Below are positions 53,529 to 61,564 of a DNA stretch of 64,000 nt, one piece after another. Source of the stretch: an uncultured Gammaproteobacteria bacterium. Lineage in GTDB: Bacteria > Patescibacteriota > Patescibacteriia > Magasanikbacterales > UBA922. The translations under genes were made by a program, and so were the position numbers. Each line of letters opens with the position of its first letter. The stretch's first letter is position 1. Where the stretch lies: positions 72,919-136,918 of the forward strand of contig CAYUTO010000003.1 in the NCBI GenBank assembly GCA_964447765.1. Direction: 5' to 3'. The notes under the pieces were generated by a model that made no database searches, had not been told where the DNA came from, and saw nothing but the letters and a program-made list of their open reading frames with translations.

Positions 53529-54626
53529 CTAACTGTCAAGCTGAGGCTTATCAAGGAGATCAGGCACAATTACCTTCTCACTCGCCCCCGTGATTCGTAC
53601 CACATCCTTATCAATTTTACCAAGCTCTTTATAGGCGGTATTGAAATGGTTTACGGTGGTAGACATACTCAGACCCAATTTCTTCATATACTCATCATAC
53701 GCATTGATATGTTTCCCGAGCATTTCCACATTCTTTCGAATCATCTTTGCCCCTTCTTCAATCTTCAAAGCTCGAAGACCGAAGAGTACAGTCTGGAGAT
53801 AAGCTGAAAAAGTTGTCGGCGAGACTATTACCACCTTCTTTTCATTGAACGCGTAATCAATCAAATTTCTGGTATTTACTTTTACAGCACCCACTTCATT
53901 CACGAGAAGATCATAGTAAATCGCTTCAGATGGAATATACATGAATGCAAATTCCAGCGTTCCCTCATCTGGTTTGATATATTTTGCTGTTTCATCAATT
54001 CGTTTTTTCAAATCATTTTTGAAATCTTTTTCTAGTTGTTCTCGATGTGGTCCCTCTGGTTCATGAATCAATCGTTCATAATTGTCGAGTGAAAACTTGG
54101 CGTCCACCGGAATAATTCCCTCTTTGGTAAATATAGCAACGTCCACAATATCTCCATTATTAAAATGATGCTGAGTTTTGAAATCATTCGGTGACAATAT
54201 ATTTTCAAGAAGTAAATTAAGTCCTACTTCACCCAGATTTCCTCTCTGTTTCTGGTGCTTCAATACTTTTTCAAGGTCGCTTAGCTGTGATGAAAATCCA
54301 ATTACTTGCTGATTCGTCTTATCGAGTGTGGTTAATTTTTCAGTAATGTCTGTAATGATTTTTGAACTCTGTGCAAATTGTGTTTGGAGTGTGTGATGCA
54401 AATTCTGCTGACCTTCACCTACGATTTTATGCGTTTCTGAAATCTTAGTGTCCATTGTTTTCTGCATATCTTGCAGCTGCTGCTGGAACATGAGAAATAT
54501 TGCTTTTTGCTCTTCTGGATTTTCATTTTCTTTTACTGGAGTCGACATCTTCTTATACATCATAAGTATTACTCCGAGCATGGCGAGTAGTAACACACCA
54601 AATACAATCAATAATCCCGTTTGCAT
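53529..54626 (-). CDS. rmuC: DNA recombination protein RmuC
   Basis: N-terminal TM, long coiled-coil, C-terminal RmuC nuclease-like domain (YIKPDEGTLEFAFMYIPSEAIYYDL). Confidence 0.8.
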   Translation of the reverse strand: MQTGLLIVFGVLLLAMLGVILMMYKKMSTPVKENENPEEQKAIFLMFQQQLQDMQKTMDTKISETHKIVGEGQQNLHHTLQTQFAQSSKIITDITEKLTTLDKTNQQVIGFSSQLSDLEKVLKHQKQRGNLGEVGLNLLLENILSPNDFKTQHHFNNGDIVDVAIFTKEGIIPVDAKFSLDNYERLIHEPEGPHREQLEKDFKNDLKKRIDETAKYIKPDEGTLEFAFMYIPSEAIYYDLLVNEVGAVKVNTRNLIDYAFNEKKVVIVSPTTFSAYLQTVLFGLRALKIEEGAKMIRKNVEMLGKHINAYDEYMKKLGLSMSTTVNHFNTAYKELGKIDKDVVRITGASEKVIVPDLLDKPQLDS

Positions 54627-54867
54627 ATATAAAGTATTTTAATCTTCTAATCTTCAATCTTTATTCTTCAGTTATTTCTTCCCTATTTTCCCAAAGAAAA
54701 ACGCGATCAGTGTCGCAGCAATTGATCCGAGGATTAGTATGAGAATTGATAAGAATCCATCCATAGTATTATCCATAATAACACAAACTTTTCTCTCTGT
54801 CATTGTGTCATTCCGAGCGAGTGCACTCGAGTCGAGGAATCCCTTGTTTTGCAATAATATACGGTAA

Positions 54868-54958
54868 AACAAAAAGACACCACAGGTGTGATGTGCTTTT
54901 GGTTTGGGCGGAACTGACAGACACAGTTCCGCAGGGTTGTCCTAAGTTTTACTTCCAC
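54868..54958. repeat. ~90-bp direct repeat copy 1 (hairpin gcggaactg...cagttccgc)
   Basis: aacaaaaagacaccacaggtgtgatgtgcttttggtttgggcggaactgacagacacagttccgcagggttgtcctaagttttacttccacc. Confidence 0.75.
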
Positions 54959-55007
54959 CATGTCTGAGGCAGAAGGAGTATAACCTACTCAAGTATGTGA
55001 AAATGCT

Positions 55008-55886
55008 CTATTTGACTACAGGACCCACTTCTTTGATAAAATCTGGTCCGACGTTACCTTCTATCCCCGCTTTCATTGTGCGCCGGTACCACTCTCTAAA
55101 GTTATTTCGGTAAATTGCGCCCCAGACTTCTATTGTCTGTTGCATCACTCCCGAATCATTCATCCCCGTTTCAGCACTCACCTGTTTTGGGAGTCTTCCT
55201 CTCTTGTATAACACAGCATACAATCTCGCTTGCGCAGCGTAGGCTGTTTCTTCGAATCCTTCTAGGTCTGAGTTGTAGAAGCCCTTCATCTGAGTGCGAT
55301 CTTGTATATTGTTCTTCTGGATGTACTTCAGACAGTCAGAAGCATGCTTCATCTCGTGATAGAAGCCGAGCGCCACGAACTCCGTACTCCCCTGAGAAGG
55401 AGCGGCGACTGCGTACCTATCATTAACGCAGTCATATGCCATTCGCCCAGTCCCACCTATTGGTTCCGAGTAGAATACCCATTGAATCCGACGCGTGCCC
55501 TGCACGTACTCTTTGAGGAGGGCGAAGATCTCTTTGTCATCTTGTGTAGACAAGAATGGATCACCTTCAAACTCGAGAATGACGTCTGCTGAAGCACGCA
55601 GTTGCTGTGGACTTACTGCTGGCAGGTTTTTTACGCTCACGAACTCGTGATCGAGGTCCACGAGTTCAGGAACTTGAGCCCGAACTGCGGTATTGACAGT
55701 CTGGTGTGCCGCCGCCGGTCTGTTCACGACTGATCTCGTATTCCTCTCTTTTGCGAGGAAGAAGATAGCGATACCCCCGAGCACCAGGGCCGAGATTGCC
55801 AGTAGCATACCCGACCAGTTTTTATTCACTGGTTTCTCAGCCATTTTAACTGCTGAGCGAACTTGGTGCTTAGTTTTTTTCGACAT
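55008..55886 (-). CDS. Membrane-anchored putative zinc metallopeptidase (HEMKH motif) in GC-rich islet 4
   Basis: Start at MSKKTKH (GTGAGGT RBS upstream). One TM, then an extracytoplasmic domain with FYHEMKHASD (HExxH). Confidence 0.5.
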   Translation of the reverse strand: MSKKTKHQVRSAVKMAEKPVNKNWSGMLLAISALVLGGIAIFFLAKERNTRSVVNRPAAAHQTVNTAVRAQVPELVDLDHEFVSVKNLPAVSPQQLRASADVILEFEGDPFLSTQDDKEIFALLKEYVQGTRRIQWVFYSEPIGGTGRMAYDCVNDRYAVAAPSQGSTEFVALGFYHEMKHASDCLKYIQKNNIQDRTQMKGFYNSDLEGFEETAYAAQARLYAVLYKRGRLPKQVSAETGMNDSGVMQQTIEVWGAIYRNNFREWYRRTMKAGIEGNVGPDFIKEVGPVVK

Positions 55887-55926
55887 GATTACCTCACTGT
55901 TGCTGGTCCTATAATTAGGACTAAGC

Positions 55927-55955
55927 AAAATACTACAATTTATACGTTTTGTCAA
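55927..55955 (-). promoter_or_regulatory. Promoter (TTGACA-N17-TATTTT) of the metallopeptidase-like gene
   Basis: Minus strand reads caTTGACAaaacgtataaattgtagTATTTTgc. Confidence 0.45.
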
Positions 55956-55971
55956 TGCTACAGGGTATATA

Positions 55972-56059
55972 AAACAAAAAGACACCACGGATGTGATGTG
56001 CTTTTGGTTTGGGCGGAGCTCTCAGGTAGAGCTCCGCAGTTGATGTGAGTTTTACTTCC
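55972..56059. repeat. ~90-bp direct repeat copy 2 (hairpin gcggagctc...gagctccgc, compensatory changes relative to copy 1)
   Basis: aacaaaaagacaccacggatgtgatgtgcttttggtttgggcggagctctcaggtagagctccgcagttgatgtgagttttacttccac. Confidence 0.75.
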
Positions 56060-56376
56060 ACAACCTGAACATAGAAGGGGTCTCAGTAGACCTAGCGCGC
56101 ATATTATTGCGCTTCCAGACCACTACCCTAGGAGTGAGCTTATCACATTCCCTGTACCCACCTAAGGAACAGATACATATGCACCGGGTTGGAAATAGTG
56201 CAGTCCTCACTCTCTTGCATCTTCTGCTGCCCAGGTGCACTGCTCTGCGAAGCACTAATTTGCTCATGGCTCGTAGCCAGTATACCTGCAATGAGCAGAG
56301 GCAGAATAAATATGGACGCTATTATCGCAATGAATTTTTTATCCATTTCCATAGCACCTCAGGTCGGTGGTAAGCT

Positions 56377-56838
56377 TTACCCCCAGAAGCCGAGTCGTTG
56401 CCACCAGTGGGGTGGATACGTCTGGGTCGGTTTGTGTTCACCCGTAAGATCGATCGAGTTCTTAACCTCTACAGCATTCACCCCGTTAATGAGGAAGATG
56501 AAGTTGCACTCTCCCTTACCGAGGTAAGTGGAAAAGGCGATAACTCCACCTTTACTGTATAAATACCCGAACTGATCGACCCCTTTGTTTCCGAATGGTA
56601 ATTCGAGCTCAAATGCGATCAGAGCACTGAACTTCTTTCCACCAGGAACAGAGAGTACGATCGTCTGCATCCCTGGCACCAACTCTTCAGTAGCACTTCC
56701 TAAATAGTGCCACTGGATCTTATTTTTATTGTCGTCAGTGTAGTTCTTCAGAAACTTGAACTTCTTCACGAGTTCCTTCGCGAGGAACACAGTCGTCACG
56801 AGGGCGATGAGAAGGAACAATAGAATGATTGTAAACAT
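56377..56838 (-). CDS. N-terminally anchored hypothetical protein in GC-rich islet 4
   Basis: 153 aa with one TM (IILLFLLIALVTTVFL). Confidence 0.45.
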   Translation of the reverse strand: MFTIILLFLLIALVTTVFLAKELVKKFKFLKNYTDDNKNKIQWHYLGSATEELVPGMQTIVLSVPGGKKFSALIAFELELPFGNKGVDQFGYLYSKGGVIAFSTYLGKGECNFIFLINGVNAVEVKNSIDLTGEHKPTQTYPPHWWQRLGFWG

Positions 56839-56942
56839 GCGACTCTCCAGTGTCCTTGGTTGTAAGGACTAAAAATTATATCACAGAACACCCTCTTTGT
56901 CAAGACTAAATGATGTATGTTTATCTAGATTTAAAACTATCT

Positions 56943-57013
56943 TGTAAATTTATATTTACTAATATATACTATATTTAAGTTATATTATTATCTATTGTAA
57001 ATTTGTATTTACA
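56943..57013 (+). promoter_or_regulatory. Two copies of palindromic operator-like site TGTAAAT-N4-ATTTACA upstream of the TrmB-like regulator
   Basis: tgtaaatttatatttact at 56943-56960 and tgtaaatttgtatttaca at 56996-57013; the second overlaps the start codon region. Confidence 0.45.
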
Positions 57014-57016
57014 ATT

Positions 57017-57760
57017 ATGCAGATTGAAGAGTTGGTAAAAATTGGACTGGCGGAAACTGAAGCAAAGACATATCTTGCTCTTCTTGAACTTGGATCTGGA
57101 ACTGTAACTTCTATCACCCACCGGGCTAGTATCACTCGAACACTCGGGTACCATTCACTTGATCAATTAATCGCATTTGATTTGGTTGAACAAAAAAAGA
57201 ATTCACAACCCGCAGAGTTTCACGTGAAACATCCGCGAAAATTAATCGAGTATGCGGAGAGGCAAAAAACCATGTGGAGTAATCGTATCAATGATGCAGA
57301 AAATCTCTTGCCAAAACTTGAGTCGTCCTATACAATGCTCGGGCGCCCATTTCTTTCAAACCGTGTAGGAGAAGAAGCTGTATTAGATTTGTATAGAATA
57401 CTGTATACAAATAAAAACACACTTATTTCTCTCCTTTGCCCTACGATTCTAGGACGTGACACACTCATAGCTTTCTTTGAAGCCAAATCTCAGTCTGAGA
57501 ATCCTTCAAATATCTGCTGTATCTTTGACACTCCAGAAAATAGACAAGCTCTTGAAGGTCTTTCGGGGGTATCCACTATTCAATGGATTATTCCCTCAAA
57601 AGTACATACAGCTGTATACAAATCGGCTGAAATTATCGTTTCAGAAGACACCATATACACTATTAACAATAAAGAAGGCGAGTTGTGTGCTGATAGTATC
57701 ACCCATGAAGCCACTGTAAGTTCTATGTACACACTACTGTATACATTAATCCAGAAATAG
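57017..57760 (+). CDS. TrmB-family HTH transcriptional regulator
   Basis: N-terminal wHTH LGLAETEAKTYLALLELGSGTVTSITHRASITRT typical of TrmB-like regulators. Confidence 0.65.
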   Translation: MQIEELVKIGLAETEAKTYLALLELGSGTVTSITHRASITRTLGYHSLDQLIAFDLVEQKKNSQPAEFHVKHPRKLIEYAERQKTMWSNRINDAENLLPKLESSYTMLGRPFLSNRVGEEAVLDLYRILYTNKNTLISLLCPTILGRDTLIAFFEAKSQSENPSNICCIFDTPENRQALEGLSGVSTIQWIIPSKVHTAVYKSAEIIVSEDTIYTINNKEGELCADSITHEATVSSMYTLLYTLIQK

Positions 57761-57812: not shown

Positions 57813-57884
57813 GCTCCTATAGTTCAATGGATAGAACAAGACACTCCTAACGTCTAGATCCGCGTTCGATTCGCGGTGGGGGCA
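57813..57884 (+). tRNA. tRNA-Arg (anticodon CCT)
   Basis: Acceptor gctccta/tgggggc. Same D-arm as the Arg-TCT tRNA. Anticodon loop ctCCTaa. T-arm ccgcg-ttcgatt-cgcgg. Confidence 0.75.
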
Positions 57885-58335
57885 CAAATTAGAAAATTCT
57901 TTGAGTACACCATCCTCTCGACACACACTTGCAGAAACCAAGGTCGGGGATAGCCCTAATAACTAGCAATACACGCGGCATACACAAACCGTGTTTTTGT
58001 TACACACCTAATCAATTTTTGAGGTAGATTTAATAATTCATCTCTATACATAATTAAAGATAGAACCTAATCCATTTTTTTTATTTGTTTAATATAAAAT
58101 ACCGACAGCACCCCTAGGAAGAAAGTTGAGCACATACACTACAAAGCCTCACATATTTAATTAAATTGTGTTTAATTTGCTTAATGTAAATAATATTAAG
58201 TGTCGTACAATATAATTATTTACATATTAAACATGCGTATGCCCCAAAATTTTATATTACTAACCCCTTATACCTTGTTTTTTTGAAAAAACCTGTTATA
58301 CTTTTTCCAGTTTCTGTTCCAACACCTAGCCAAGG

Positions 58336-58644
58336 ATGTGTGTCATGCTTCAGTTCTTTGTCTCCTTAGTACTCATTTACCTGGCAACCGAGTTCGCTCG
58401 ATACATTATCGAGCAGACGAAAGCTCTCGGAGAGCTGGACAACACTCAGGATGCCATCAGCGTCACTCCTCCCGCTAACCGCGACATGATAAACTGGTTC
58501 TACTCCTCGTCGGACGAAGAACCACCTACCAAACAGAGGTTACATCCACCACGAACGAAGAAGGGCTCAATACGCCCTCATCGACGTGCACGTATGCGAC
58601 GACCCCCTTGCATACGCAGCGGACCTAACACCGCACGCCTCTGA
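58336..58644 (+). CDS. Hypothetical protein in GC-rich islet 5 (TM N-terminus, basic P/R-rich tail)
   Basis: 102 aa. Followed by a long hairpin ccgtcctaagtctgttcg...cgaacagacttaggacg. Confidence 0.35.
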   Translation: MCVMLQFFVSLVLIYLATEFARYIIEQTKALGELDNTQDAISVTPPANRDMINWFYSSSDEEPPTKQRLHPPRTKKGSIRPHRRARMRRPPCIRSGPNTARL

Positions 58645-58796: not shown

Positions 58797-59870
58797 ATGT
58801 TATCGATTGGAATTGTCGGACTCCCCAATGTAGGAAAATCAACACTTTTTAACGCGCTTACCAAAAGTAAGCTCGCTGAAGCTGCTAATTATCCTTTTTG
58901 TACTATTGAACCTAATGTTGGTGTAGTTGAAGTTCCAGACGAGCGACTTGCGCCACTTGCCACTACTTCAAAATCGGGAAAAATTATCCCAACCGCAATT
59001 CAATTTGTTGATATTGCAGGAATTGTAAAAGGCGCATCAGAAGGTGAAGGATTGGGAAACAAATTTCTTACTCATATCCGTGAAGCTGACGCGATTGTAC
59101 AGGTCGTACGTGCGTTTGAAGATGGAAATATCATTCACGTATCAGGAAAAGTAGATCCAAAAGACGATAGTGATGTAATCAATCTTGAACTCGCACTTGC
59201 CGACCTTGCAACCGTCTCAAAACGATTGGATAAAACAAAACGCGATGCAAAAGGTGCAGCGGCAAAAGGAAAAGAAGTGGAGATTGCAGTACTCGAAAAA
59301 CTAAACGCACAATTGGGAAGTGGATTACCCACACGAGATCTTGAATTTAATGATGATGAAAAACTAATTGTACGAGATCTACACTTACTTACCATGAAAC
59401 CCATGATGTACGTGGTGAATGTAGAAGAAACTGCGGTAGGGAAAGTAGATTTCAAAAGTATTTTTGGTGCAACTCCCTATATAGAGATCAGTGCAAAAAT
59501 TGAATCAGAAATTGCTGAATTAAATTCTGAAGATGCAAAAATGTTTATGGATGATCTAGGAATGAAAGAAACTGGGCTTGATCGATTAATTGTTGCTGGA
59601 TACAAACTACTTAATCTCATTACATACTTTACTTCTGGAGAACAAGAAACACGTGCATGGACAGTTACAAGTGGGACTCTCGGCCCTGATGCTGCAGGAG
59701 TCATTCATACTGATTTTGTCAAAGGATATATCAAAGCTGATGTTGCAAGTGTTGCCGACTTTGTAGAACTTGGTGGCTGGCCAGGAGTAAAAGAAAAAGG
59801 AAAGATGCAGTTAGTCGGAAAAGATTATGAAGTGAAAGATGGTGATGTATGTTACTTTCATATCGCTTAA
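58797..59870 (+). CDS. ychF: Redox-regulated ATPase YchF (Obg-family)
   Basis: GIVGLPNVGKSTLFNALT P-loop, DIAGIVKGAS, TGS-type C-terminus. Confidence 0.9.
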   Translation: MLSIGIVGLPNVGKSTLFNALTKSKLAEAANYPFCTIEPNVGVVEVPDERLAPLATTSKSGKIIPTAIQFVDIAGIVKGASEGEGLGNKFLTHIREADAIVQVVRAFEDGNIIHVSGKVDPKDDSDVINLELALADLATVSKRLDKTKRDAKGAAAKGKEVEIAVLEKLNAQLGSGLPTRDLEFNDDEKLIVRDLHLLTMKPMMYVVNVEETAVGKVDFKSIFGATPYIEISAKIESEIAELNSEDAKMFMDDLGMKETGLDRLIVAGYKLLNLITYFTSGEQETRAWTVTSGTLGPDAAGVIHTDFVKGYIKADVASVADFVELGGWPGVKEKGKMQLVGKDYEVKDGDVCYFHIA

Positions 59871-59910
59871 CCTAGTCACGAGTCAGTAAAGTCATAAAGT
59901 CGAAAGTAAA
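59871..59910. repeat. Intergenic repeat, family R1 (partial)
   Basis: cctagtcacgagtcagtaaagtcataaagtcgaaagtaaa. Confidence 0.55.
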
Positions 59911-59971
59911 ATGCACATGCAAAAAAAGTAAACGAAAAAGTTAAAAGAAAATACAAATACAATTCATAAAT

Positions 59972-60002
59972 AAAAATCCGCCGTATGGCGGGTTTTGTTT
60001 TT
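59972..60002 (+). terminator. Rho-independent terminator after ychF
   Basis: aaaaatccgccgtatggcgggttttgttttt. Confidence 0.7.
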
Positions 60003-60127
60003 ACCTTTCGTCCTTATCTTCAGGACTCATCAGTTCATGTTTCACATGAAGAGGTCGGCCGTTTTTTTGAGGTACGGCGTAACCTCTCTCCGTTTTACGA
60101 AATGGAGATAAAACTTATACGTAAGGA

Positions 60128-60460
60128 TCAATCAGACTTCTGGTTCATCGCCTCCCACGTCTCTTCGAGAGACTTGCGCACTGCCTCTTGCTCGTGGAAT
60201 TCTCTGTTCACCTTCAGGACAAGGTCCTTCAGATTCAGGAGTATGAAGTAAAGCACGATATCATCTTCTTCGGACAACCCCTTGTCCGAATAGTAGATCC
60301 CTCGAGCTTCGGAGTATTTAACACTCCCTTTCTCCTTTTCTCCGGTCACCTGGACTTCCACTTCCACCACCCATGCGAGACCAGTGATACGGTCTCTGAT
60401 GGCGTCGGAGATCGCGGTAATCTGAAGTACCCACTGCTCTCGCTTGATTTTACTGTTCAT
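60128..60460 (-). CDS. Hypothetical protein in GC-rich islet 6
   Basis: 110 aa. Promoter-like gcCTTGACAacaagcgcttattttggTTAACT on the minus strand upstream (~60565-60595). Confidence 0.4.
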   Translation of the reverse strand: MNSKIKREQWVLQITAISDAIRDRITGLAWVVEVEVQVTGEKEKGSVKYSEARGIYYSDKGLSEEDDIVLYFILLNLKDLVLKVNREFHEQEAVRKSLEETWEAMNQKSD

Positions 60461-60592
60461 TCAGTTCCCCTTGGTGGCCATTACAGACCGATTGAAATGC
60501 ACACAAACCTAGAAACCAACTTTGATTTCCACCATTGTGCGCACTTATACTTAAAGGAGAATGATTTAGTTAACCAAAATAAGCGCTTGTTG

Positions 60593-60853
60593 TCAAGGCT
60601 TATCTATTCCACCTTTGGACCAGGGATTACATCGAATTATCCGCCAGGCCGCTCTGGGTAGACCCTGGATCACTCCATATTTTTTGATTACTTGATACCC
60701 ATACTCACTACAACTCGGAGTAAATTTACAATATCCATAGGGAAATTTTGCCTTCATAGGCCCATGATCAGGTGAAAGTGTTCGCTGATACACCCGAATA
60801 ACAAATAGGAGTATATTTTTGGGAATGGTAATAATAAAACGAAGTAATCGCAT
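60593..60853 (-). CDS. yidD: Membrane protein insertion efficiency factor YidD
   Basis: YQRTLSPDHGP...CKFTPSCSEYGYQVIKKYG; canonical YidD. Confidence 0.8.
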   Translation of the reverse strand: MRLLRFIITIPKNILLFVIRVYQRTLSPDHGPMKAKFPYGYCKFTPSCSEYGYQVIKKYGVIQGLPRAAWRIIRCNPWSKGGIDKP

Positions 60854-60883
60854 ATTTTAGCTTAGTTGAGAGAAAAAAGACGA

Positions 60884-61261
60884 TTAGATGAGTAATCGAG
60901 CTTTTTTGAGAATAGATTCAATATCCTGAGTAATATCAGCATATTCTGCGCTAAAAAGCTTTGGAGTAGATAAAAATGCAATAAAGTAGCCTTCTTTAAT
61001 TCTTTTATCCTTAAGGAGCAGACGAACCACTTCTCGCATCTGCCGCTTCACTCGATTACGCCCCACAGCTTTCTTTTCATGCTTCACACTCGCTACAAAC
61101 CCGATTTTTAGATCATTTTCTACATATCCACGCTTAGGATACTTAGCCGGATCAATTTTCCAGATCTTTGCCCCCACAATATTACCCGACACAAATCTAC
61201 CCTCTTTAAAAAGGATTTCAAAGTCTTTCATTTTTTTAAGCCTACACTCCTGAGATAACAT
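60884..61261 (-). CDS. rnpA: RNase P protein component
   Basis: KKAVGRNRVKRQMREVVRLLL basic RNR-like motif. Start is uncertain: TTG at 61294, or ATG at 61261 or 61231. Confidence 0.75.
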   Translation of the reverse strand: MLSQECRLKKMKDFEILFKEGRFVSGNIVGAKIWKIDPAKYPKRGYVENDLKIGFVASVKHEKKAVGRNRVKRQMREVVRLLLKDKRIKEGYFIAFLSTPKLFSAEYADITQDIESILKKARLLI

Positions 61262-61299
61262 AGCTAAATTGTGTACGCCTTCATAAAGATACAAATTTT

Positions 61300-61340
61300 C
61301 TTTCGACTTTATGGACTTTCCGACTTTTGACTAAAGGTAA
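61300..61340. repeat. Intergenic repeat, family R1 (partial)
   Basis: tttcgactttatggactttccgacttttgac. Confidence 0.55.
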
Positions 61341-61387
61341 GTATAACACAAAGCCCCGTTTGAGCGAGGCTTTGAATTTGTTCAAGT

Positions 61388-61564
61388 TTATCTGGTCTTT
61401 TGAGTGCGTTTTCCTTTGCGTTCGCTACTCACCGTGAGTTTTTTTCGACCCTTAGCGCGTCGGCGCTTGAGTATATCACGACCATCTTTTGTCCTCATTT
61501 TTTTCAAAAAACCATGGGTTTTTGCTCGTTTTCGTTTTTTTGGTTGATACTTTCGCTTTGGCAT
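61388..61564 (-). CDS. rpmH: 50S ribosomal protein L34 (with C-terminal basic extension)
   Basis: [45 protein letters not shown]. Confidence 0.85.

Follow-up and report, generated by a model that had tools for sequence, protein, structure and literature searches.

Two repeats around a GC-rich gene of a Candidatus Magasanikbacteria genome are probably copies of a structured 3' terminator module

When a foreign-looking gene is bounded by two direct repeats, do the repeats record its insertion or do they belong to the transcription units themselves? The question is raised by a locus in a 64-kb window (64,000 nucleotides of contig CAYUTO010000003.1, assembly GCA_964447765.1, the whole stretch analysed here), where a preliminary description had pointed out two repeats of about 90 nt flanking a GC-rich gene for a membrane-anchored protein with an HExxH motif; the protein has 292 amino acids (aa). 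It had proposed either the duplicated attachment (att) site of an inserted cassette or a structured leader or terminator reused by consecutive minus-strand genes. The repeated element is a folded RNA that has not been described before and is confined to one clade of Candidatus Magasanikbacteria, a group of the Candidate Phyla Radiation (CPR). The two repeats are probably paralogous copies of a structured 3' terminator module that is reused to cap GC-rich gene cassettes, each of them self-contained. The evidence does not support the att-site reading, and the repeats are not regarded as scars of an insertion event.

The repeat search of the window recovered both repeats flanking the HExxH gene, as one pair of 70-nt segments with 87% identity (54865-54934 and 55970-56039) and a second pair of 23-nt segments with 83% identity (54936-54958 and 56039-56061). 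The 25-nt core GTGATGTGCTTTTGGTTTGGGCGGA occurs exactly twice in the 64 kb, against 0.00 occurrences expected from 100 shuffles. Also the compensatory changes described for the central hairpin were found as stated, with GCGGAACTG/CAGTTCCGC in one copy and GCGGAGCTC(T)/(A)GAGCTCCGC in the other, and copy 1 does lie upstream of rmuC, at a distance of about 240 nt (53529-54626, Pfam RmuC E=1e-48). Some details had to be revised. A covariance model (R1), built from 13 distinct sequences of the full form of the element that is present in the window (class A), extended each copy further in the 5' direction (RNA sense), so that one copy covers about 130 nt and not about 90 nt. The gene between the repeats is indeed GC-rich (0.493 vs 0.405 for the window), but the GC-rich stretch is wider, from about 54900 to 56800, and includes three orphan open reading frames (ORFs). 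The R1 search detected no copies in the window beyond these two, and none elsewhere in 223 kb of related loci. Compared over the whole element (133 aligned columns), copies 1 and 2 are 71% identical.

The functional strand of the element is the minus strand, which it shares with the genes. In both copies the minus-strand RNA has a lower fold z-score (Table 1) than the plus-strand RNA (-1.5 for copy 1, -3.2 for copy 2). Read in the RNA sense, the element begins with the short hairpin P0, which starts at or just past the stop codon of the upstream ORF, and continues with the hairpin P1 (consensus CUUC(C/U)...GGAAG), an A/C-rich joining stretch opening with UAAAAC, the hairpin P2 (consensus GCGGAG...CUCCGC), the linker CCAAACCAAAAG, a terminator hairpin and the U-tract CUUUUUGUUUU. 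Two unpaired segments, GGAAGUAAAAC and CCAAACCAAAAG, are highly conserved. The terminator scan detected in both copies, on the minus strand, a hairpin of seven pairs, three of them G-C, with a 4-nt loop and the tail CTTTTTGTTT, and with an energy of -6.9 kcal/mol, or -11.9 kcal/mol with the A/U extension. By the sequence definition both copies are intrinsic (Rho-independent) terminators.

Table 1. Position of the element copies, their parts and the adjoining genes and promoters in the window.
Feature	Position	Strand	Basis and remarks
Element copy 2 (class A)	55969..56098	-	R1 117.2 bits, E=3e-22, full length; fold z=-5.8; downstream of the 153-aa and 69-aa ORFs
Copy 2 P0 hairpin GGUCU-ACUG-AGACC	56079..56092	-	Helix P0: four pairs changed on both sides among 13 sequences
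Copy 2 P1 hairpin CUUCU...GGAAG, loop with CAGGU (56063-56067)	56055..56077	-	Stem invariant but for one pair, C-G to U.G
Copy 2 P2 hairpin GCGGAGCUCU-ACCUG-AGAGCUCCGC	56013..56037	-	Loop ACCUG (56023-56027) complementary to P1-loop CAGGU
Copy 2 A/C-rich linker CCAAACCAAAAG	56001..56012	-	Nearly invariant; predicted to pair with U-tract CUUUUUGUUUU (RNAalifold consensus)
Copy 2 intrinsic terminator ACAUCAC-AUCC-GUGGUGU + CUUUUUGUUUU	55971..55999	-	Terminator scan; stem invariant in all copies, including the U.G wobble
Element copy 1 (class A)	54864..54995	-	R1 109 bits, E=2e-20; fold z=-3.1; downstream of the 292-aa HExxH gene
Copy 1 P0 hairpin GAGUA-GGUUA-UACUC	54976..54990	-	Fold and covariation
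Copy 1 P1 hairpin CUUCU...GGAAG, loop with CAGACA (54961-54966)	54952..54975	-	
Copy 1 P2 hairpin GCGGAACUG-UGUCUGU-CAGUUCCGC	54908..54932	-	Loop UGUCUG (54918-54923) complementary to P1-loop CAGACA
Copy 1 A/C-rich linker CCAAACCAAAAG	54896..54907	-	RNAalifold consensus
Copy 1 intrinsic terminator ACAUCAC-ACCU-GUGGUGU + CUUUUUGUUUU	54866..54894	-	Terminator scan; stem invariant
Gene of the 292-aa membrane-anchored HExxH...E protein (cassette gene)	55008..55886	-	ORF, motif, homologues, AlphaFold2 (AF2) model
Promoter-like TTGACA-17-TATTTT for the 292-aa gene	55927..55955	-	Just past copy 2; TTGACA box conserved in L028, L039, L042, L053, L048
Promoter-like ATGACA-17-TATTAT (TG-extended) for the tiny ORF and rmuC	54775..54803	-	Past copy 1
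69-aa orphan ORF with hydrophobic segment	56143..56352	-	In the ~320-nt stretch 56061-56380
Gene of a 153-aa orphan membrane protein, C-terminus ...WWQRLGFWG	56377..56838	-	Homologues in L029, L037, L038, L042, L043, L044, with class A ~10-40 nt past the stop

Covariation was analysed in the 13 distinct class A sequences, which come from one clade and are mutually related, in an alignment fitted to the model. Standard pairs were present in 96.7% of the cells, compared to 92.3% in shuffles, and none of the 500 shuffles reached as high a value. Both sides had changed in seven pairs, of which four belong to P0 and three to P2, and again none of the 500 shuffles had as many; controls with slid partners were only 37-54% paired. 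RNAalifold produced the same helices and in addition predicted pairing between the linker and the U-tract, which would give a fully paired 3' end. U.G pairs are present in the terminator of all 13 sequences, in P1 of four and in P2 of five, and because they would read as A.C mismatches on the opposite strand, they favour the minus strand. The covariation indicates that the fold is probably under selection.

In every class A sequence the P1 loop is complementary to the P2 loop, and the two change in step: CAGACA/UGUCUG in copy 1 and CAGGU/ACCUG in copy 2 of the window, and among the related-genome loci compared with it (labelled L028-L053) UGGC/GCCA in L028, L029 and L037, ACAGG/CCUGU in L043 and CAGG/CCUG in L053. 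Among six representative types, the duplex lengths of the loops with their own partners summed to 27, while the maximum in 265 derangements was 25, and 1 of 5000 loop shuffles reached a sum of 27. The summed duplex energy was -60.2 kcal/mol with the own partners, compared to -43.0 +/- 5.6 kcal/mol with permuted ones (fraction 0.0012).

With its two stable hairpins, the A/C-rich region left unpaired and the U-tailed terminator, the element also has the usual anatomy of bacterial small RNAs, and the invariant single-stranded stretches would suit a small RNA released from the 3' untranslated region (UTR) and acting in trans or binding a protein. However, the element has no visible promoter of its own, its start being marked by the stop codon of a GC-rich coding sequence. 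At least two paralogous copies with different loops occur in one locus, and no target is evident, a target search not having been made. Such an RNA is considered highly unlikely.

The element is placed in relation to the gene before it. Its start coincides with the stop codon of that ORF or overlaps with it, and sigma-70-like promoters are found past both copies (Table 1). Of the leader or terminator suggested earlier, only the terminator stands: the module belongs to the 3' end of the upstream gene and is not a leader, because it ends in a hairpin with a U-tract, the next gene has a promoter of its own and the element starts at the upstream stop. The layout could nevertheless be that of a regulatory RNA, riboswitch-like or a protein-dependent attenuator, which would set the read-through into the 292-aa gene or into the tiny ORF, rmuC, rpsT and the GGDEF gene. 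The compact kissing-loop fold, the conserved unpaired GGAAGUAAAAC and CCAAACCAAAAG and the terminator directly after them resemble an aptamer followed by its expression platform, and the invariance of the unpaired and some of the paired parts suggests a specific ligand or protein. Against this, no anti-terminator or other segment complementary to the terminator strands was seen by eye, no systematic complementarity search having been run; the downstream gene varies (the 292-aa gene or the tiny ORF and rmuC) and has a conserved promoter, the constant partner being the upstream stop codon; and the Rfam searches described below gave no match. A regulatory RNA of this kind appears unlikely.

The comparison with relatives bears directly on the insertion question. 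At related loci that lack the HExxH gene (L029, L037, L038, L044), a single element is indeed present, as att-site duplication would predict; as a mechanism, duplication is unsupported. The window contains 1105 nt that L037 and L038 lack, made up of one element, the promoter and the 292-aa gene, and both window copies can be aligned with the one element of L038. Copy 2 shows 61-73% identity to the elements of other species, and copy 1 is no closer to it (71%). The insert carries the 292-aa gene only and no recombinase, and the loops of the terminators differ between the copies (ACCU vs AUCC). In L028, L039, L042 and L053, the 292-aa gene is flanked by one class A element and one element of a second form, class B, which have only some 40 nt in common; in L048 the trmB-like intergenic region is followed directly by the gene, with a class B element downstream only. 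No recombinase or integrase was detected within 5-6 kb at the related loci (about ten genomes; precomputed Pfam families); the Pfam families present within this distance in L039-L053 were YidD, YchF, TrmB, RmuC, S20, GGDEF, HolA, DoxX and PolA.

The locus is otherwise highly variable. The window and L042, with 95% identity of their RmuC proteins, match at 88-98% of the nucleotides of the trmB-like gene and rmuC and at 33-70% across the orphan genes, while the core of the element forms a conserved island with 91% identity. In the 292-aa family the same two are only 49% identical, compared to 95% in RmuC. In contrast, L042 and L048 share 84% protein identity in the 292-aa family vs 80% in RmuC, and parts of their 292-family genes are 90-98% identical at the nucleotide level, with rmuC mostly at about 65-88%. 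The tree of the 292-aa family conflicts with the RmuC tree, which indicates that the gene has probably been exchanged between lineages. The breakpoints between L042 and L048 lie within the 292-family gene at its 3' end and also in the trmB-like region, and are not confined to the elements. In the two comparisons (window vs L037/L038, and L042 vs L048), whole units of promoter, gene and element were gained or lost. An exception is the segment of some 320 nt that carries the 69-aa ORF and lacks its own element.

One form of the insertion reading would make the element an att- or attC-like recombination site, at which a circular cassette of promoter, gene and one element integrates into a resident element. 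Several observations agree with it. Where relatives lack the gene, exactly one element is found in the same place, and the extra 1105 nt of the window amount to one unit. The gene families keep their own 3' variants (class A with genes ending in FWG or ITYI, class B with the 292-aa family), as integron cassettes do with attC, and the 292-family gene moves between lineages, as the identities above show (L042/L048 84% vs 80% for RmuC; window/L042 49% vs 95%). The invariant ACATCAC-N4-GTGGTGT could bind a recombinase, and in L034 it lies just upstream of a serine recombinase gene. The attC sites of integrons, however, fold on the bottom strand into a single imperfect hairpin and have RYYYAAC/GTTRRRY ends. 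Such ends were not seen by eye at the borders of the element, no pattern search having been run. Neither is there an integrase or recombinase within about 6 kb (about ten genomes). With only 71% identity and different hairpin loops, the copies have no common crossover core in the hairpin; the wobble pairs fit the sense strand, the loop-loop covariation and the U-tract are RNA features, the L042/L048 breakpoints fall where described above, and the cassettes have their own promoters. A recombination site is distinctly unlikely. Duplication of an att site is disfavoured because of the low identity of the copies, the RNA-type covariation, the lack of a recombinase nearby and the breakpoints inside genes, and also because the flanks are unlike variants in L028, L039, L042 and L053 and L048 has no upstream element. 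The simplest reading is ordinary homologous recombination together with selection on self-contained transcription units, the elements serving as islands of homology.

The distribution of the element was examined in one genome per species (185,579 species, GTDB representatives) with a terminator pattern. The scan gave 10 exact matches in eight genomes, 1-2 per genome; all were true instances and all were in metagenome-assembled genomes (MAGs) of Candidatus Magasanikbacteria. Extra instances were obtained independently of the pattern from loci anchored on RmuC homologues with 80-95% identity. At the same trmB-like/rmuC locus the element is present in 11 other distinct sequences of related genomes. 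Genomes in which RmuC identity is down to 69-73% lack it upstream of rmuC, and a 292-aa family member of 37% identity has no element beside it. Five of the records with the element (L030, L034, L035, L037, L038) are titled 'uncultured Gammaproteobacteria', and the titles look wrong: L030, L035, L037 and L038 are syntenic with the Magasanikbacteria trmB-like/rmuC locus, and L034 shares its contig with the rmuC locus L048.

The two forms of the element follow different genes. Class A follows genes ending in ...GFWG (the 153-aa homologues) or ...ITYI, and class B follows the 292-aa family in L028, L031, L039, L042, L048 and L053; a class A copy after the 292-aa gene is found in the window only. 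Class B differs in its 5' part but is built on the same principle, its P2 loop (CCGUCC or ACCCGUC) being matched by a complementary strand further upstream (GGACGG or GACGGGU). Its A/C-rich linker is related (e.g. AAAAGACAAAAG or CCAUACAAAAG) and its terminator is the same as in class A.

The terminator part occurs alone, behind another GC-rich hairpin, at two characterised unrelated places. In L036 it lies after a GC-rich orphan gene and before the gene of isoleucyl-tRNA synthetase (IleRS), and in L034 after a GC-rich orphan gene of 245 aa, 140 nt upstream of a large serine recombinase gene (Resolvase and Recombinase domains). An AbiV-like HEPN gene is also present nearby in L034, and the region L034:3476-7998 is possibly a mobile or defence island. 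A third terminator match, in L033, is at a contig end, with the upstream part cut off. These places could be taken to mean that the element is a selfish or generic intergenic repeat, of the type of repetitive extragenic palindromic (REP) sequences, BOX or miniature inverted-repeat transposable elements (MITEs), with a function not tied to the locus. The preliminary description had named many copies at unrelated positions as the sign of such a repeat; what was found approaches this only weakly, with the terminator part at the three places and 1-2 exact copies per genome. There are two copies in 64 kb and none elsewhere in the 223 kb of related loci; the orientation and the position after a GC-rich ORF are constant, the covariation indicates selection on the fold, and terminal inverted repeats and target duplications were not seen on inspection. 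A generic repeat is hardly credible.

No known RNA family was recognised in the element: Rfam 15 gave no match up to E=10 in 54600-56400 and at the gathering score only three tRNAs in the window, and in six related loci nothing overlapped the element up to E=5. The pattern GGAAGTAAAACN{25,55}CCAAACCAAAAG gave in the metagenome scan 11 chance matches, all in coding DNA. Viral scans with an 18-mer of the linker and with the terminator pattern produced only chance matches or ordinary terminators without the upstream domain, and therefore no sign of a phage origin.

A number of further candidates were rejected after inspecting the sequence and the genes around it. A tRNA- or transfer-messenger RNA (tmRNA)-like element is not indicated, as ARAGORN finds only three tRNAs, elsewhere in the window. 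Repeats of a diversity-generating retroelement would have a reverse transcriptase nearby, which is lacking, and the differences between the copies are not at adenines. Ends of the IS200/IS605 insertion sequence type with a passenger gene do not fit an empty site that keeps one copy. The RNA of a type III toxin-antitoxin system has tandem short repeats, which are not present here. A recoding hairpin after UGA, like the selenocysteine insertion sequence (SECIS), is contradicted by UAA at this place in L028 and L039. As an operator of the TrmB-like regulator, the repeat is surpassed by a better palindrome pair in the divergent intergenic region, and the conserved T.G asymmetry of its hairpin fits RNA better.

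The terminator module favoured here would act as follows. Transcription of the upstream gene on the minus strand would run through P0 at the stop codon and then through P1 and P2, with their loops pairing, and would stop at the invariant 7-bp hairpin and CUUUUUGUUUU. The A/C-rich linker could then pair with the U-tract, resulting in a fully paired 3' end. By terminating transcription the module would insulate each cassette from the next promoter, and the kissing-loop domain together with the paired 3' end may shield the mRNA from 3'-to-5' decay or offer a surface for binding a partner. As conserved islands among fast-diverging genes, the elements may also provide the homology for gain, loss and exchange of cassettes by homologous recombination.

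Several points weigh against this mechanism. Termination, transcript ends and stability are all deduced from the sequence, and the promoter assignments are predictions by consensus match. The class A set is small and related (13 sequences, one clade), with the pairs counted on a model-fitted alignment, and the short loops make the loop-loop statistic only moderate. Covariation cannot test P1, the base of P2 and the terminator stem, in which no variation occurs. The invariance itself is also not accounted for: the three stems keep their sequence in more than 20 copies and in several gene contexts, with the adjacent loops free to vary. Stem invariance beside varying loops points to a partner that reads the sequence (a protein, an RNA or a ligand), which is outside the model of a terminator and stabiliser. 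It is conceivable, at rather long odds, that a dedicated factor recognises the invariant hairpin and the pseudoknotted domain, either in an integron-like exchange of CPR cassettes without a canonical integrase or through a sensor RNA co-regulating cassettes of GC-rich surface proteins. This idea is kept alive because the stem invariance across paralogues and species and the exchange of the 292-family cassettes are not explained by a plain terminator.

The protein encoded between the repeats has the HExxH motif reported for it (FYHEMKHASD) and a predicted N-terminal transmembrane helix at residues 24-47. A word-indexed search of 5.8 billion proteins found a single homologue (51% identity), and its contig of 1.6 kb has the same layout, with an element on each side. 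Exact protein matches were present in the Logan assemblies of SRR12712864 and SRR12712865. The family is rare, with 52 cluster representatives among 1.84 billion proteins. Residues H177, E178, H181, E212, D117 and R221 are invariant in 44 family members and also in six locus homologues, and HExxH...E is the signature of gluzincin-type zinc peptidases, to which the protein would belong by its motif. There was no match to the protein in Pfam, NCBIfam, PADLOC or the sequences of the Protein Data Bank (PDB). The AF2 model was confident, with a predicted local distance difference test (pLDDT) value of 85.7. Its top Foldseek matches in the PDB were minimal zinc peptidases (PprI, 3c37, SPRTN, Wss1), none of them significant (E>=0.05, TM ~0.2). 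'Putative membrane metalloprotease', the earlier label, is a fair one, supported by the motif and not proven by the fold.

The gene order around the element is conserved: ychF, tRNA-Arg, the divergent trmB-like regulator, one to three small GC-rich orphan genes with the element after the orphans, a tiny membrane ORF, rmuC, rpsT, the GGDEF gene and holA. The genes carrying the element are all GC-rich (0.47-0.60, compared to 0.38-0.40 in core genes). In the window, the segment of about 320 nt is an insert that separates the 153-aa gene from copy 2. L037, L038 and L042 lack it, and in these the element lies at most about 10 nt past the stop of the 153-aa homologue. In the divergent intergenic region between the trmB-like and the 153-aa genes, the palindrome TTGTAAAT-N4-ATTTACAA occurs twice (56942-56965 and 56995-57018). 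The latter is a perfect 8-bp inverted repeat. L048 has a similar sequence, and the pair (56942-57018) is likely the operator of the TrmB-like regulator.

Other small features were observed in the surroundings. Between copy 1 and rmuC there is a hydrophobic ORF of 34 aa, MDNTMDGFLSILILILGSIAATLIAFFFGKIGKK (54672-54776, minus strand), which all close relatives have conserved in front of rmuC and which has almost no leader when counted from the predicted -10 box; the putative product is similar in kind to small membrane peptides, type I toxins for example. A hairpin ATTCC...GGAAT with the inner palindrome CGAGTGCACTCG (54811-54845, minus strand) lies just before the -35-like ATGACA of the tiny ORF, and hairpins of different sequence occupy the matching place in L029, L035, L037, L038 and L039. 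The 5' UTR of the 292-aa gene (55887-55926, minus strand) has the hairpin AGUCCUAAUUAUAGGACC between the promoter and the start codon, and in L028, L042 and L048 the corresponding hairpin of the 292-family gene is GGUCCUUA(C/U)AGUGAGGACC. A GC-rich orphan ORF of 102 aa (58336-58644, plus strand), with a counterpart in L029, is situated between tRNA-Arg (57813-57885) and ychF, and further GC-rich kilobase bins of the window are at about 40-41, 43-45 and 48-49 kb. Sub-threshold matches to Hammerhead_3 (gathering 48.5) were obtained at L039:690-750 (27.7 bits) and L043:1157-1211 (22.9 bits). The two are syntenic, between the yidD-side gene and ychF, and nothing comparable is present in the window at 59800-61500.

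The element adds a candidate structured RNA motif, with no counterpart in Rfam, to the CPR, from which few RNA elements have been described. It also draws attention to a hypervariable locus beside rmuC, in which self-contained units of a promoter, a GC-rich orphan membrane-protein gene and a structured terminator are gained, lost and exchanged. The lesson for annotation is that att sites are not the only explanation for direct repeats on either side of a foreign-looking gene. Restricted to one lineage, the finding is to be seen as a lead, not as a result of broad consequence.

Among known systems, REP sequences and bacterial interspersed mosaic elements (BIMEs), the pneumococcal BOX and the Correia elements of Neisseria are likewise repeated, hairpin-forming intergenic DNA, sometimes with terminator activity. 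They occur, however, in tens to hundreds of copies and in both orientations, while the present element has 1-2 copies per genome, a fixed orientation and a tie to one gene class. With integron cassettes and attC it shares the position of a structured element 3' of small, compositionally odd and often orphan genes in a same-orientation array, the number of cassettes varying between genomes and the sequence varying with the paired positions kept. Unlike in integrons, there is no integrase or attI, the cassettes have promoters and a U-tract terminator, and the element consists of four separate hairpins with a loop-loop contact, not one imperfect hairpin, with the wobble pairs fitting the sense strand. 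Riboswitches with loop-loop contacts, such as the purine and guanidine-II ones, also have two hairpins with paired loops, conserved junction nucleotides and a terminator directly downstream. The element differs from them in having no closing helix or three-way junction, in loops which are not ACGR, in following a gene and in lacking an Rfam match.

At the 3' ends of the crystal protein genes of Bacillus thuringiensis, a terminator fragment that stabilises the mRNA is known as a 'positive retroregulator'. The element resembles it as a structured, fully paired 3' end that would block 3'-to-5' exonucleases, but has no sequence relation to it and is composed of several hairpins with tertiary pairing. 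The closest comparison is with Rho-independent terminators with an upstream A-tract: the element has the 7-bp hairpin, the 4-nt loop and CUUUUUGUUUU immediately after it, its A-rich upstream run can pair with the U-tract, and it sits between a stop codon and the next promoter. In contrast to ordinary terminators, its stem, including the U.G pair, is invariant across paralogues, contexts and species while the loop varies freely, and it has about 100 nt of conserved upstream structure with a loop-loop contact. It is best described as an intrinsic terminator with a previously undescribed, covarying and pseudoknotted upstream domain, found in one Magasanikbacteria clade on cassettes of GC-rich orphan genes.

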